NCBI GenBank assembly: GCA_964523145.1
Contig: CAZFYB010000005.1
Span: forward strand, 560-64,559
Source of the DNA: an uncultured Candidatus Saccharibacteria bacterium
GTDB taxonomy: Bacteria; Patescibacteriota; Saccharimonadia; Saccharimonadales; Saccharimonadaceae
Direction of reading: 5' to 3'
Length of the DNA stretch: 64,000 nt
Of this stretch, positions 43,370 through 47,779 are shown one piece after another. The position numbers were made by a program, and so were the translations under genes. Numbering within the stretch: position 1 is the stretch's first letter; each line of letters opens with the position of its first letter. The notes under the pieces were generated by a model. It did no database searches. It was given only the letters and a program-made list of their open reading frames with translations, and was not told where the DNA came from.

Positions 43370-44041
43370 ATGAATCAAAATATCTCACGAATCATCACAG
43401 GACTTATCATATTACTTATTGGAGTTGGCGCACTACTCAGCGCAACCAATGTATTCCCTTTTTGGAGCCTTTTAAGTACATGGTGGCCATTACTTATCGT
43501 TGCGGCAGGTCTATTAGTATTGGCCGGTAATCCAAAAAGCAACTTTTTATGGGGTATTGCCCTTATCGTTATTGGTGGACTGTTGCAGTTTAACCAGCTC
43601 GATGTGCTTAGTTTTAATGCATTCTCACTTATCTGGCCAATCGCAATTATTGCCGTTGGACTTTCTGTCTTATGGAACGGGAAAGGCCGCTTTGGTAAAC
43701 AAGACCTTTCAAAAGATGTTGATGATATCTCAGTCATTTTTAGTGGCAGCGAAGTAGTGAATAAATCAAAAAATTATAACGGTGGTAAAATTACCGCAAT
43801 TTTCGGGGGAACCTCTATAGATTTGCGTGACGCTGTGATTAATAAAGAAGCAACTCTTGATATTTTCACCCTTTGCGGAGGTGTTGAACTCCGTGTCCCA
43901 CGAGAATGGCGCGTTGTTTCGAAGGTAACCCCAATTCTAGGGGGAGTTGAAAACAAGGCCCTCGGCAGTGAAGACCACAAAGGACCTGTTTTACTTATCA
44001 CTGGTATTGCTGCACTTGGTGGCGTTGAAGTTAAGACTTAG
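43370..44041 (+). CDS. LiaF/LiaI-like membrane protein (DUF5668 TMs + DUF2154-like beta domain)
   Basis: 4 TMs with WWPLLIV / IWPIAII; C-terminal AIFGGTSIDLR, GGVELRVP.EW.V. Confidence 0.8.
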   Translation: MNQNISRIITGLIILLIGVGALLSATNVFPFWSLLSTWWPLLIVAAGLLVLAGNPKSNFLWGIALIVIGGLLQFNQLDVLSFNAFSLIWPIAIIAVGLSVLWNGKGRFGKQDLSKDVDDISVIFSGSEVVNKSKNYNGGKITAIFGGTSIDLRDAVINKEATLDIFTLCGGVELRVPREWRVVSKVTPILGGVENKALGSEDHKGPVLLITGIAALGGVEVKT

Positions 44042-46926
44042 TGCTTTTTAAGCGAAATAGTCAGCGGCATTAACTCAATCACCACTTCATCGGTATAATC
44101 GAAACTATCTTCGCTCAGGCTCACCGCTAAGGTTTCAACTTGAATTGCCTCGGCAAATTCTACCACTGCTTTTTCGAGCTCTTCACCCTTGGCTTTTAAG
44201 CTGAGCTCAATACGGTCATCAATATTTAAACCGGCGTTTTTACGAGCGGCTTGCACATAGCGAATAACTTCTCGGGCGAGGCCTTCACGGCGAAGTTCAG
44301 GAGTAATGTTTTTATCGAGCACTACTGCAACATCATCGCCCTCTCCATGCTGTACCGATTTTACATTCACCTCTTCTGCGATAACATTTTCGTAATACTC
44401 ATCAAGCACTTCACCGGTATAAGTAAGGGTTGCAAGCGGTTGGCGAACTTTAATTTGCTGCTGTACGTCATCTTTATACATACGTAAAGCTAATCCTTGT
44501 TCGATGATTTCGCGGGTGCGAGCCATCCGGCTGAGCACTAACTCATTCGCATGGCCAACTTCTGGCCAGTCAGTTAAGTGCACGCTTTCGCCACCAGTAA
44601 GCTTTTGGTACAGCTCTTCAGCCATAAACGGTACAAATGGCGCAATTGCTTGGCTTAGGCGCACTAGCACATAGTGAAGGGTGCGGTAAGCGTTATTTTT
44701 ATCGGTGTCGTCTTCAGATTTCCAAAAACGGCGGCGTGAACGGCGTACATACCAGTTACTCGCATCATCTAGAAACGGTAAGATTGGTTTGGTTGCGGCG
44801 GCCACATCGTAGCCTTCCATTTTTTCTTCAATTTCTTGAATCAGTTGGTGAACCCGGCCCACGATCCATTGGTCGAGCGGGTTTTCCAGGTTGTCGCTAG
44901 GGTCAACTAAGCTACCATCAAACTCCCAGCCATCAACTTCGGCATACATTGTAAAGAAATCGTACATGTTCCACACCATGCTGAGTTTTCGAGCGATATC
45001 ACCTACGTCTTTATCCTGCAAGGCAAAATCTTCACCTGAAAGGAGTGGGCTTGAAAGCAGCAAGAAACGCAACGAATCGGCACTGAATTTATCCATTAAT
45101 TCGTTTGGATCGGTAAAGTTACCAAGGCTTTTACTCATTTTACGGCCATCGTTTCCTGCAACGTTACCGGTAACGATCACATTCTTAAAGGCGTTGTGAC
45201 CAAATAGTCCAACGTTAACGGCGTGCACATAGTAAAACCATGCCCGAACCTGCCCTACGTACTCAACAATAAAGTCGCCAGGGAAATTAGCTTCGAATTT
45301 TTCAACATTTTCGAATGGATAATGGAACTGTGCAAAGGGCATTGAGCCAGACTCAAACCAACAGTCGAGCACTTTGTCGATACGAGTATACGTCACACCA
45401 TCAATTTCAAAGGTAATGTCATCAACCCATGGGCGGTGATAATCATCGAGCTCTACCCCACTAAGGACTTTGAGCTCTTCATAACTGCCGATCACTTTAA
45501 TATGTTCAACGCCGTCTTTATCGGTGCCTTTCCATACTGGCATAGCCGTTGCCCAAAATCGATCGCGGCTTAAGTTCCAGTCAGGGGCGGTTTCAACGGT
45601 GTGCTCAAAACGACCGTGTTTTATGTAGTCAGGGAACCAGTTGATGTTTTCAGTATTTTGCTCGAGCATCTCAACTCGTTGGCCATCAATATCCATAAAC
45701 CAACTTGGGTGAGCCCGGTACATAAGGCGGTGGCCGGTACGAGGGTTGTGCGGGTATTCGTGGCGTATGTAGTCGATTTTCCATACTTTGCCATTTTCAA
45801 GCAGTGCCTTAGCAATGGCTTTGTTGTTTTCCCAAACGTCCAAGCCTTTCCACTCACCTTCAGTGTATTCGCCGTACTCATTTAACACATGGACAATGGG
45901 AATGCCTTTTTGCTTTGCAAGAATAAAGTCTTCTTCACCATAGGCTGGTGCTAAGTGAACAATACCGGTACCCGATTCAGTCGTCACGTAATCTGCTTCA
46001 TACACTTGATGCGCACCTTCGCCTCGATCTTCAAAGAGCGGTACATATTTTTTGCCAATCAACTCTTCGCCCTGAATGGTTCGAAGTTGTTCGTATTCCA
46101 GCGGTTGGTGTTTTTCATTGGTCAGTACTTTTTCAACGAGATCCTTAGCAAGAATGAGTTTTATACCATCAATAAGTACCTCTACATAAGTGACGTCTTT
46201 ATTGACCGCCAATGCTGTATTTCCCGGCAGGGTCCAAGGCGTAGTTGTCCAAGCAAGCAAGAACGTATCTTCGTCAGCAAGCTTGAATTTCGTATACACA
46301 CTCGGGTCGGTCACCTCAACATACGCTCCAGCGTCCATTGTCACTTCAGCCTTTGAAAGTGGAGTCGCCCACTTCGTGTCGTACATTAATACGCGTTCGC
46401 CTTCGTAAATTTTGCCTTTTTCGTATAGCTGCTTGAATGCCCACCACACACTTTCCATGTAGTTTTTATCCATGGTTTTGTAGGCACCTTTAAAGTCGAC
46501 CCAGCGGCCAACGCGGGTAATAGTGTCTTCCCATAAGCTCGAGGTTTGTACCATGCTTTCGCGGGCTGTGGTAATGTATTCCGCAAGGCTAATACGGGTG
46601 CCAATTTCGTGGCGGTCAGTAATCCCCAGTTGCTTTTCAACAAAGTTCTCGGCCGGCAAACCGTGGCAGTCCCAGCCCCATACTCGCTCGACTCGCTTGC
46701 CTTTCATCGTTTGAAAACGAGGAATTGCGTCTTTTACGACTGAACTTAATAGCGTTCCATGGTGCGGTACACCGGTAATAAATGGTGGGCCATCGTAAAA
46801 TACGTATGAATTTTCTTTCGGGCGCAGCTCAATAGACTTCTCGAAAGTTTGGTTATCTTTCCAGTACTGGGCGATGTCTTTTTCGTATTCGATTGCGCGG
46901 CGGCGGGTGTTGGCCTTAAATTGCAT
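44038..46926 (-). CDS. ileS: Isoleucine--tRNA ligase, type 2
   Basis: FYDGPPF, GWDCHGLP, WTTTPWTLP, WNLSRDRFW, VGQVRAWFY, KMSKS, WYVRRSRRRFW; start moved to ATG 46926. Confidence 0.96.
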   Translation of the reverse strand: MQFKANTRRRAIEYEKDIAQYWKDNQTFEKSIELRPKENSYVFYDGPPFITGVPHHGTLLSSVVKDAIPRFQTMKGKRVERVWGWDCHGLPAENFVEKQLGITDRHEIGTRISLAEYITTARESMVQTSSLWEDTITRVGRWVDFKGAYKTMDKNYMESVWWAFKQLYEKGKIYEGERVLMYDTKWATPLSKAEVTMDAGAYVEVTDPSVYTKFKLADEDTFLLAWTTTPWTLPGNTALAVNKDVTYVEVLIDGIKLILAKDLVEKVLTNEKHQPLEYEQLRTIQGEELIGKKYVPLFEDRGEGAHQVYEADYVTTESGTGIVHLAPAYGEEDFILAKQKGIPIVHVLNEYGEYTEGEWKGLDVWENNKAIAKALLENGKVWKIDYIRHEYPHNPRTGHRLMYRAHPSWFMDIDGQRVEMLEQNTENINWFPDYIKHGRFEHTVETAPDWNLSRDRFWATAMPVWKGTDKDGVEHIKVIGSYEELKVLSGVELDDYHRPWVDDITFEIDGVTYTRIDKVLDCWFESGSMPFAQFHYPFENVEKFEANFPGDFIVEYVGQVRAWFYYVHAVNVGLFGHNAFKNVIVTGNVAGNDGRKMSKSLGNFTDPNELMDKFSADSLRFLLLSSPLLSGEDFALQDKDVGDIARKLSMVWNMYDFFTMYAEVDGWEFDGSLVDPSDNLENPLDQWIVGRVHQLIQEIEEKMEGYDVAAATKPILPFLDDASNWYVRRSRRRFWKSEDDTDKNNAYRTLHYVLVRLSQAIAPFVPFMAEELYQKLTGGESVHLTDWPEVGHANELVLSRMARTREIIEQGLALRMYKDDVQQQIKVRQPLATLTYTGEVLDEYYENVIAEEVNVKSVQHGEGDDVAVVLDKNITPELRREGLAREVIRYVQAARKNAGLNIDDRIELSLKAKGEELEKAVVEFAEAIQVETLAVSLSEDSFDYTDEVVIELMPLTISLKKH

Positions 46927-46939
46927 GGCACTTCCTTTT

Positions 46940-47125
46940 TTAAAATAATAAAAACCTCTCTCGTCCATCGGAACCCGCTTGTGTGGGTGGTACCATCCGA
47001 TTTCCGAAAAAGGTTTTCTTTTTCAGCACTTGGTTCATCGCTTTGACGCAGCGGGCGCGTTGGGTTCTACTGAGATATTAGTCTGTTCTTCCCAAAACTT
47101 GTGGTTGATGGCCACTCAAACGTTC
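46940..47125 (-). promoter_or_regulatory. T-box riboswitch (Ile, AUC specifier) with ultrashort Stem I
   Basis: Minus strand: gtgg-CCAUCAA-ccac Stem I; GGAAGAAC...CAGUAGAACC Stem II (S-turn); cgct/agcg pseudoknot; Stem III ctgaaaaag/ctttttcgg; antiterminator ucgga-UGGUACC-accc...gggu-uccga; directly upstream of ileS. Confidence 0.85.
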
Positions 47126-47155
47126 TTACCTGTTATTTTACGCTACTCACCGGCT

Positions 47156-47779
47156 CTATGCAAATAAGTCAGGGCCAAATTTCAACACTACAAGGGCGAT
47201 CATGAGCACAATCCAGCTAGCGACAATAAGTTGGTGGTATCCAGCATCTAAGAATTTTTGTACTTTTTCGTTTATCTTTTTTTGTAAGTTGTAGGCATTT
47301 TCACGTAGAGCAAGTTTTGTCGAGGTAGCCAATAAGAGCGTACAAGCAGTTGTCACAATCAAGCACCATGGGCATAATATCTCAATCACATACACACTAC
47401 TGAAGAATAGCCAGTACGAAAATATTGTCCCAAGTAAAATACCTAGGTTCGTAGCAACTAAGAAGGACTTCGGGAAACGGACGCCCCATAACCCAGCTAC
47501 TGCAACGGTAACGATGACAGGGAATGCCATAAGTCCGAAGTACATGTTAGGAACACCAAAGAATACACTTGCCTGCCAGGTTTGCATAACCGCTGAACAG
47601 TTCAGTACAAGGTTAAACGTACACGAAAGAATCGCATCTGGATCGTTCATAATGTGGAGCTTTTCCATCGTTAACACAAAGGCTGCCGCAAGCGCGAATA
47701 AAGCTGCAAAAAGCATTACTAAGTAAGTAGCTTTGGTTGATTTTTTTTCAGCTTCTTTGGATTTAAATATATTAAACAT
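47156..47779 (-). CDS. Vitamin K epoxide reductase (VKOR) family disulfide-bond formation protein
   Basis: LSC...NCSAVM, FFGVPN..FGL, ILCPWC redox motif, 5 TMs. Confidence 0.9.
   Translation of the reverse strand: MFNIFKSKEAEKKSTKATYLVMLFAALFALAAAFVLTMEKLHIMNDPDAILSCTFNLVLNCSAVMQTWQASVFFGVPNMYFGLMAFPVIVTVAVAGLWGVRFPKSFLVATNLGILLGTIFSYWLFFSSVYVIEILCPWCLIVTTACTLLLATSTKLALRENAYNLQKKINEKVQKFLDAGYHQLIVASWIVLMIALVVLKFGPDLFA

Follow-up and report, generated by a model that had tools for sequence, protein, structure and literature searches.

The region ahead of ileS in a Candidatus Saccharibacteria genome raises the question of how a leader RNA can sense transfer RNA (tRNA) when no competing strand overlaps its antiterminator. 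The DNA analysed was a stretch of 64,000 nucleotides (nt), hereafter the window, of contig CAZFYB010000005.1 from an uncultured member of this group (assembly GCA_964523145.1). The leader lies on the minus strand and, judged from its sequence, is almost certainly a genuine T-box riboswitch. In the textbook T-box, an antiterminator and a terminator share the 3' strands of helices A1 and A2; here the decision appears to have been moved to another hairpin, Stem III. An earlier note on this DNA had described an actinobacterial-style ileS T-box without a classical terminator, had pointed to a possible pairing between the 3' strand of Stem III and a segment just before a U-rich tract, and had proposed a host-type aptamer, possibly acquired together with ileS2. 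The T-box architecture, the lack of a classical terminator and the pairing that competes with Stem III were borne out, whereas the host-type origin with ileS2 was not. We propose that the leader probably controls ileS by transcription attenuation in response to tRNA-Ile, through a rewired output.

Leader elements and the helix ahead of the U-tract

The leader was aligned to the T-box model RF00230, which had been suggested as a check, from 47129 to 46966 and from model position 1 to 219, end to end, with 36.6 bits (E ~1e-6 for this stretch). The gathering score of this model is 93, so routine annotation overlooks the leader; an Rfam search of the window at the gathering threshold reported only a tRNA and no T-box. 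The deficit was due to the missing distal part of Stem I, of which 78 model positions were reduced to 7 nt. The elements that the earlier note had listed, from the AUC specifier to the UGGUACC antiterminator, were all located on the minus strand at the coordinates given there, and the specifier in the apical loop of an ultrashort Stem I agreed with its description of an actinobacterial-style architecture. The elements, with the basis of each, were as follows.

47129-46942, minus strand: T-box leader of ileS (sequence reading and RF00230 alignment)
47101-47115, minus strand: ultrashort Stem I, GUGG (47115-47112), loop CCAUCAA, CCAC (47104-47101) (RF00230 alignment)
47060-47095, minus strand: Stem II, UUGGG/CCCAA, with S-turn halves AAGAAC (47090-47085) and AGUAGAA (47071-47065) (RF00230 alignment)
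47039-47059, minus strand: Stem IIA, CGC/GCG, and the IIB pseudoknot, loop CGCU with AGCG (47042-47039) (covariation and register test)
47027-47031, minus strand: purine string AAGUG, the 5'-RRRxG motif ahead of Stem III (sequence reading)
47004-47026, minus strand: Stem III, CUGAAAAAG, loop AAAAC, CUUUUUCGG (fold and covariation)
46968-47000, minus strand: acceptor-end sensor, A1 UCGGA/UCCGA, bulge UGGUACC (46995-46989), A2 ACCC/GGGU (RF00230 alignment)
46951-46963, minus strand: segment X, CGAGAGAGGUUUU, 3' arm of the predicted terminator helix P(X), starting 4 nt past A1 (complementarity and fold)
46942-46954, minus strand: U-rich tract UUUUUAUUAUUUU, of which the first four U are within P(X) (sequence reading)

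The specifier AUC (47109-47107), followed by a conserved A, was located in a 7-nt apical loop closed by 4 base pairs (bp), where it matches the anticodon of tRNA-Ile(GAU) and agrees with the amino acid of the regulated gene. The UGGU of the bulge was complementary to A73-C-C-A of the same tRNA. The purine string AAGUG, Stem III and the linker AAA together corresponded to the purines that flank Stem III in T-boxes, for which the motif 5'-RRRxG ... AA-3' was defined in a review (PMC7583486). The Stem III hairpin by itself had a predicted energy of -8.7 kcal/mol.

Segment X, CGAGAGAGGUUUU (46963-46951), was fully complementary to AAAACCUUUUUCG (47017-47005) through 13 pairs, including 2 G-U pairs. 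The target was composed of four of the five nucleotides of the Stem III loop and 9 nt of the Stem III 3' strand, and UAUUAUUUU was located directly 3' of X. In the minimum free energy (MFE) fold of the leader, a 14-bp P(X) helix was followed by a 3x3 internal loop, with A1, the bulge and A2 stacked above. A helix of 13-14 bp thus ended inside UUUUUAUUAUUUU, as in an intrinsic terminator. The P(X) duplex of the window was predicted at -14.4 kcal/mol, compared with -6.9 ± 1.8 kcal/mol for shuffled partners, and none of 2000 shuffles reached its own value. The existence of the helix is regarded as very probable. For the discriminator region, the terminator conformer had -31.1 kcal/mol and the conformer with X held single-stranded -18.8 kcal/mol; the A1/A2 sensor remained folded in both. 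When the transcript was lengthened in steps of 5 nt, Stem III was part of the MFE structure up to a 3' end at 46959, and P(X) was formed from 46954, at the U-tract. Nothing downstream was complementary to the 3' strands of A2 or A1, and neither a classical terminator nor a classical sequestrator was found there.

Conservation across the order and the proposed switch

With strict filters, RF00230 recovered the leader in just 13 of 61 relatives, and for this reason a covariance model (R1) was built from ten sequences. R1 spans only the region from the 3' half of the S-turn to the A1 3' strand, which leaves all sequence beyond it free of bias. It detected the leader as a single copy in 130 of the 151 genomes of the family (87 of 95 genera) and in 191 of the 251 genomes of the order (146 of 184 genera).

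Over 100 aligned relatives, an alignment that is fitted to R1 and hence tilted towards the structure, 98.7% of the cells of A1, A2, IIA and Stem III were paired, 13 of the 18 pairs were changed on both sides, and none of 500 shuffles scored as high. Stem III was paired in 97.7% of cells, with five of its six modelled pairs changed on both sides, and A1 (100%) and A2 (98.3%) both covaried. The third IIA pair also covaried (GC 26, UA 19, CG 16). In IIB, the two central pairs were 87-93% paired with some double changes, and register 0 was 71% paired compared with 22-34% in slid registers. The AGUAGA of the S-turn was close to invariant; in the purine string, A41, A42, G43 and G45 were invariant and U44 nearly so.

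For the analyses of the downstream part, 157 leaders of the order were parsed. In 140 of them, 4 bp closed a 7-nt apical loop that contained the AUC, and the bulge contained UGGU in 139. A bulge with UGGA instead of UGGU was observed in 14 leaders (e.g. L024, L028 and L062), which predicts a tRNA-Ile with U73 in those genomes. The U-tract began 10-21 nt past A1 in 149 of the 157 leaders, with 7-9 U within its first 10 nt in 145 of 152 scored leaders. In four leaders (L148, L154, L157 and L166), insertions in A2 shifted the A1 3' strand 38-57 nt beyond the end of the model match; P(X) and the U-tract still came after the true A1 3' strand.

The complementarity of X was a property of the order. 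The duplex segments were cut at the U-tract, because a 45-nt downstream version was blurred by pairing of the U-tract with A-rich stretches. In a swap test of 152 leaders, X had a mean energy of -15.1 kcal/mol with its own partner, -8.1 kcal/mol when X was taken from another genome and -6.0 kcal/mol when shuffled. In 148 of the 157 leaders, the 12-nt arm ahead of the U-tract paired best with sequence 5' of A1. The downstream 30 nt exceeded shuffles by 10.5 kcal/mol with the Stem III region and by only 0.6 kcal/mol with the 3' half of A2/A1, in accordance with the claimed lack of a classical terminator over the antiterminator.

The register of the pairing was examined in a gapless alignment anchored on A1 alone, with nothing fitted to P(X). 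In register 0, the nucleotide k upstream of A1 paired with the nucleotide k downstream in 75% of cells for k = 4-16, compared with 41-57% in slid registers and 57.7 ± 1.0% for permuted X (maximum of 1000 permutations, 61.3%). Cells changed on both sides were found at every k from 4 to 20, with 30-57 each at positions 10 to 16; at k = 13, for example, CG occurred 63, UA 33 and AU 16 times. The compensatory changes that the earlier note had proposed to look for across Saccharibacteria were thus present in both Stem III and P(X). The pairing extended to k = 18-20, past the Stem III 3' strand into its loop, so X always has a foothold that is not covered by Stem III. Stem III and P(X) are, as predicted from these alignments, two conserved and mutually exclusive helices; a strand in common, together with covariation in each of them, is what marks a two-state switch.

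The switch would operate as follows. The decoding half, comprising the 4-bp Stem I with its apical AUC, the Stem II S-turn and the IIA/B pseudoknot, would bind the GAU anticodon, and the hairpin of A1, the UGGUACC bulge and A2 would bind the A73-CCA end of the tRNA as a static receptor. The terminator would be composed of the 13-14-nt X after A1 and the loop and 3' strand of Stem III, with A1/A2 intact on top and their 3' strands not used. Because Stem III hides the 5' arm of the terminator, it would be the formal anti-terminator, excluding P(X), which ends at the U-tract. Uncharged tRNA-Ile would latch Stem III, and Stem III docked on the tRNA-bound receptor would resist invasion by X. If X were kept out during the few decisive seconds in which RNA polymerase crosses the U-tract, ileS would be transcribed. 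With no tRNA or with charged tRNA, Stem III would be undocked and weak, X would displace its 5' strand using the loop as a foothold, and the P(X) terminator, favoured by the predicted energies given above, would form and stop transcription.

In this scheme, the termination of transcription by P(X) and the U-tract and the action of tRNA through protection of Stem III are predicted functions. The step in which docking on the tRNA-bound receptor shields Stem III from strand invasion by X is considered likely, and related behaviour has been described for known T-boxes. The antiterminator alone hardly binds tRNA, and Stem III with its purines is integral to the discriminator and indispensable for binding of the tRNA 3' end (PMC7583486). 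In single-molecule work on the ileS T-box of Mycobacterium tuberculosis, uncharged tRNA kept the linker docked and Stem III stacked, whereas a charged-tRNA mimic with an extended 3' end undocked the linker and moved Stem III from the antisequestrator (PMC12647780).

Several observations weigh against this interpretation. P(X) encloses a structured insert of 41 nt and its stem is A/U-rich, unlike a terminator with a small loop; it is not a compact G+C-rich hairpin. A generic terminator scan did not report P(X), because the loop limit of the scan is 8 nt; the terminator-like sites in a 20-kb stretch numbered 27 versus 21 ± 5, without clear enrichment but with clear examples. P(X) is located at the same position under A1 as Stem III, and the tRNA might still bind the terminated form. 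A long Stem I, which the leader of the window lacks, is held necessary for fast tRNA capture in transcriptional T-boxes (PMC7583486). Finally, no Stem III at all was found in 15 of the 157 leaders, where the competitor cannot be a Stem III hairpin.

These 15 leaders (L132, L141, L143, L145, L146, L152, L156, L158, L159, L161, L162, L164, L165, L169 and L170) come from families f6, f10, f21, f33, f49, f51, f57, f59, f60, f64 and f65. Their purine string continues as UAAGUCCC-AAGC straight into A1, and X, which reads GGGAC or AGGGC ahead of the U-tract, forms covarying pairs with AAGUCCC or AAGCCCU. The 5' arm of the terminator is here the purine linker itself, which gives an order-wide rule that the terminator competes for whatever adjoins A1 on its 5' side.

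The leaders without Stem III bear directly on a different account of the output, in which P(X) terminates but the tRNA acts sterically or kinetically on A1/A2. The bulk of the tRNA on the bulge and on the A1 stack would hinder closure of the compound hairpin beside RNA polymerase, and Stem III would be a mere folding aid. That these 15 leaders operate without any Stem III agrees with it, as does the nesting of A1/A2, folded in both conformers, within the terminator. However, one strand is common to Stem III and P(X) and each of the two helices covaries, as selection for a two-state switch would give, and in the leaders without Stem III, the partner of X is the purine linker, for which docking on the tRNA-end helix has been described (PMC7583486, PMC12647780). 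Competition for the segment 5' of A1 is thus a common theme of both leader types, and we consider steric action through A1/A2 unlikely.

Control of translation, or of both levels, as in Actinobacteria, would make access to the Shine-Dalgarno sequence the regulated step and the U-tract incidental. The ultrashort Stem I has so far been known from translational ileS T-boxes (PMC7583486; TBDB preprint), and actinobacterial relatives reached 20-46 bits with R1. However, the U-tract precedes the Shine-Dalgarno sequence AAGGAAG, which was unpaired in all predicted conformers; neither it nor the ATG was part of a conserved alternative helix, and a helix sequestering it, sought by eye, amounted only to a 4-bp UUCC/GGAA match. 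The run of 7-9 U in 10 nt stands directly after the helix in almost all leaders of the order, and the actinobacterial leaders inspected lack such a tract. A translational output is accordingly given very little weight beside transcription attenuation through P(X).

Equally improbable in our view is that P(X) and the U-tract form a constitutive attenuator or a stability or processing element below a T-box part that has become a non-sensing relic. In its favour, the predicted energies place the terminator conformer 12 kcal/mol below the alternative one, but a comparable gap is normal in functional T-boxes (-19.5 versus -7.4 kcal/mol in TBDB). Furthermore, the AUC, the UGGU, the purine string and the S-turn are conserved over more than 140 genera and the helices covary.

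A clear classical terminator was found in only two of the 157 leaders, L125 (genome G334) and L150 (genome G041). Both share the decoding domain, the gene and the order with the leader of the window, but the 5' arm of their terminator consists of the loop and 3' strand of A2 and the 3' strand of A1. Both wirings therefore coexist in one lineage.

Promoter, target gene and tRNA ligands

The leader lies in the 230-nt gap that separates a VKOR-family gene (47779-47156) from ileS on the minus strand, with the following features around it.

47135-47164, minus strand: promoter-like site, TTTGCA (47164-47159), 18-nt spacer, TAAAAT (47140-47135) (consensus scan)
46924-46937, minus strand: Shine-Dalgarno sequence AAGGAAG (46937-46931) and likely ileS start ATG (46926-46924) (sequence reading and relatives)
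44038-46926, minus strand: ileS, type-2 isoleucyl-tRNA synthetase (IleRS), 962 amino acids (aa) from the ATG at 46926 (profile and PDB matches)

GUAAAAUA was found again in close relatives at a similar short distance 5' of Stem I. From this recurrence and the promoter-like motif, the transcript would begin at about 47128, some 10 nt ahead of Stem I. The N-terminus of the enzyme, MQFKANTRRRA, lined up with relatives that start at the equivalent ATG.

The ileS product matched TIGR00392 with 776 bits. Against PDB entries it scored 649 bits with 8c8v and 598 with 1ile, compared with 297 for 1ffy and 281 for 8c9e; the first two we take to be type-2 and the last two type-1 enzymes. By these scores the enzyme of the window is a type-2 IleRS, as the name ileS2 in the earlier note had implied. 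The class I HIGH signature of this IleRS (residues ~48-63) reads PHHGT and not PHYGH, the last His being replaced by Thr, and H-x-G-T was common to 28 of 31 IleRS sequences of the order. The remaining three (L049, L063 and L067) kept HYGH or HFGH and branched apart in the IleRS tree. Two IleRS2 lineages thus seem to occur within the order, both preceded by one kind of leader.

In some relatives, the leader was followed by a different reading frame. In L002, L008 and L010, all of one genus, the T-box preceded an open reading frame (ORF) that by eye resembled an acetyltransferase and not the N-terminus of IleRS. The NCBIfam model NF040702 for a GNAT-containing IleRS matched the protein of the window through the IleRS part only (270.6 bits, cut-off 1999). 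At locus L004 / L052 (G044), a short ORF beginning with MAKGIVYIMTTAVSGLIKIGKTG stood directly after the T-box terminator, where ileS was expected; it resembled by eye a GIY-YIG / T5orf172-type domain, and a mobile element may have inserted here, separating the gene from its leader.

The genome comprises 797 kb in 16 contigs and is 99% complete, and the ileS leader was the sole T-box in a genome-wide search. The housekeeping tRNA-Ile(GAU), encoded at 826-902 of contig C15, carries A73-CCA and fits both the AUC specifier and the UGGU of the bulge. A second tRNA with the anticodon GAU was located 3 kb away from the T-box, at 49972-50045 on the plus strand. It combines a G3:U70 pair of the alanine type with a weak anticodon stem, A73 and an encoded CCA. 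On paper it also fits the AUC and UGGU contacts, and it could be a ligand of the ileS leader or a decoy.

Origin and comparison with known T-boxes

The proposed acquisition of a host-type aptamer with ileS2 disagreed with the distribution of the leader, which is present throughout the order and has related ileS and valS leaders elsewhere in Patescibacteria. Among 401 genomes sampled from the phylum, R1 detected T-box leaders in 76 genomes of other classes; the inspected ones carried the specifier in a short apical hairpin and stood before ileS, valS (GUC specifier) and other genes. Crude classification of 72 leaders from outside the order gave 33 that pair 5' of A1, including 11 of the 15 valS leaders, 21 classical ones, 12 that pair with the A1 5' strand, the bulge or the A2 5' strand, 1 with a local hairpin past A1 and 5 without a U-tract. 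The same classifier thus called 21 of these 72 classical and is not biased to one answer. The valS leaders of other classes included L175, L178, L186, L187, L190, L321 and L323, among others. The inspected valS leaders L175, L178, L181, L186-L188 and L190 had a short Stem I with GUC in its apical loop; in several, the segment ahead of the U-tract paired 5' of A1, and L175 and L190 had a free-standing terminator hairpin after A1.

Actinobacterial leaders were collected from named genomes by a scan with a GC-rich DNA motif of IleRS2, and 80 loci were listed of at least 120 matching stretches, almost all from Actinomycetota. An ileS leader scored 20-46 bits with R1 at 53 of the 80 listed loci, compared with mostly ~40-100 bits inside the order. 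In 28 inspected actinobacterial leaders, no U-tract was present and the Shine-Dalgarno sequence lay 30-60 nt downstream; the output domain of the leader in the window is therefore not the actinobacterial one. The energy test gave no excess over shuffles for either partner in these GC-rich leaders, where it is powerless.

The IleRS tree was calculated by a quick search from the N-terminal 380 aa of 106 sequences, with an outgroup fetched by a single GC-rich DNA motif; it can reject nesting within the sampled Actinomycetota, not place the enzyme among all IleRS2 lineages. The 34 Patescibacteria were on one side of a branch with a Shimodaira-Hasegawa-like approximate likelihood ratio test (SH-aLRT) value of 76, and the other 72 sequences (68 Actinomycetota, 3 Planctomycetota and 1 Pseudomonadota) were opposite. 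The Patescibacteria side had long, deep internal branches, whereas the Actinomycetota formed a tight group, and the IleRS2 phylogeny, which the earlier note had set against Actinobacteria, did not nest the enzyme among the Actinomycetota sampled. Four loci from Planctomycetota and one Hyphomicrobiales genome (L219, L255, L260 and L266) share a 38-nt IleRS2 DNA motif with Actinomycetota. Joined by a single Acidimicrobiales sequence, these loci made up a small group that was sister to the other 67 Actinomycetota, which may reflect a transfer of ileS2.

No sign of a recent transfer from actinobacterial hosts was seen, given that the leader spans the order, that other Patescibacteria have related leaders and that the IleRS does not fall within the sampled Actinomycetota. 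An ancient link may connect the ileS modules of the two phyla; the IleRS tree samples Patescibacteria, Actinomycetota, Planctomycetota and one Pseudomonadota sequence.

No report that joins a T-box with Saccharibacteria, Patescibacteria, the candidate phyla radiation (CPR) or TM7 was found in the literature searched. The wiring in which Stem III is invaded was likewise absent from the searchable T-box literature, a search that some key older papers lie outside, and only the two classical outputs are described in the review PMC7583486 and the TBDB preprint. T-boxes would thereby be extended to the candidate phyla radiation, where they fall below the threshold of Rfam. The leader is the only T-box, and among the few recognisable cis-regulatory RNAs, of a ~0.8-Mb genome that has few regulators. 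We lean towards the view that Saccharibacteria and some other Patescibacteria hold a third T-box platform, in which A1/A2 never unfold and serve as a pure receptor of the tRNA 3' end. The signal would pass solely through docking of the segment 5' of A1, either Stem III with the purine string or, where Stem III has been lost, the purine linker itself; the same segment is also the 5' arm of the terminator. Such a platform would back, with genetic evidence from nature, the recent structural view in which the aminoacylation signal is carried by Stem III and the purine linker and not by A1/A2. Its compact design of ~185 nt with a static tRNA-end receptor could be a scaffold for engineered tRNA-responsive switches.

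Translational ileS T-boxes with an ultrashort Stem I were reportedly described by Sherwood et al. in 2015 from Actinobacteria (Mycobacterium tuberculosis, M. smegmatis and Nocardia farcinica); the translational set of TBDB belongs here as well. The leader of the window shares with them the apical AUC in a very short Stem I without an elbow-binding distal domain, the Stem II S-turn, the IIA/B pseudoknot, the purine string, Stem III, the A1 / UGGUACC / A2 sensor and a type-2 ileS as target. The outputs differ. In the actinobacterial leaders, which lack a U-tract, the A1/A2 3' strand and the Shine-Dalgarno region together form a sequestrator (PMC12647780 and the leaders inspected here), whereas the leader of the window has a free Shine-Dalgarno sequence, a U-tract and an alternative helix on the loop and 3' strand of Stem III that leaves A1/A2 intact.

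In its output, the leader resembles the classical transcriptional T-box of the Bacillus subtilis tyrS / glyQS type: the choice between terminator and readthrough would be made as the polymerase reaches the U-tract, the two do not differ in their tRNA contacts, and in each the terminator exceeds the alternative fold in stability. In the classical type, however, the terminator takes its 5' arm from the A1/A2 3' strands, and a long Stem I that carries an elbow-binding platform is deemed necessary (PMC7583486). In the leader of the window, the 5' arm consists of the loop and 3' strand of Stem III, and Stem I has 4 bp. This combination challenges the rule of a long Stem I for terminator-type T-boxes; if the proposed attenuation is true, a T-box without an elbow-binding Stem I works co-transcriptionally.

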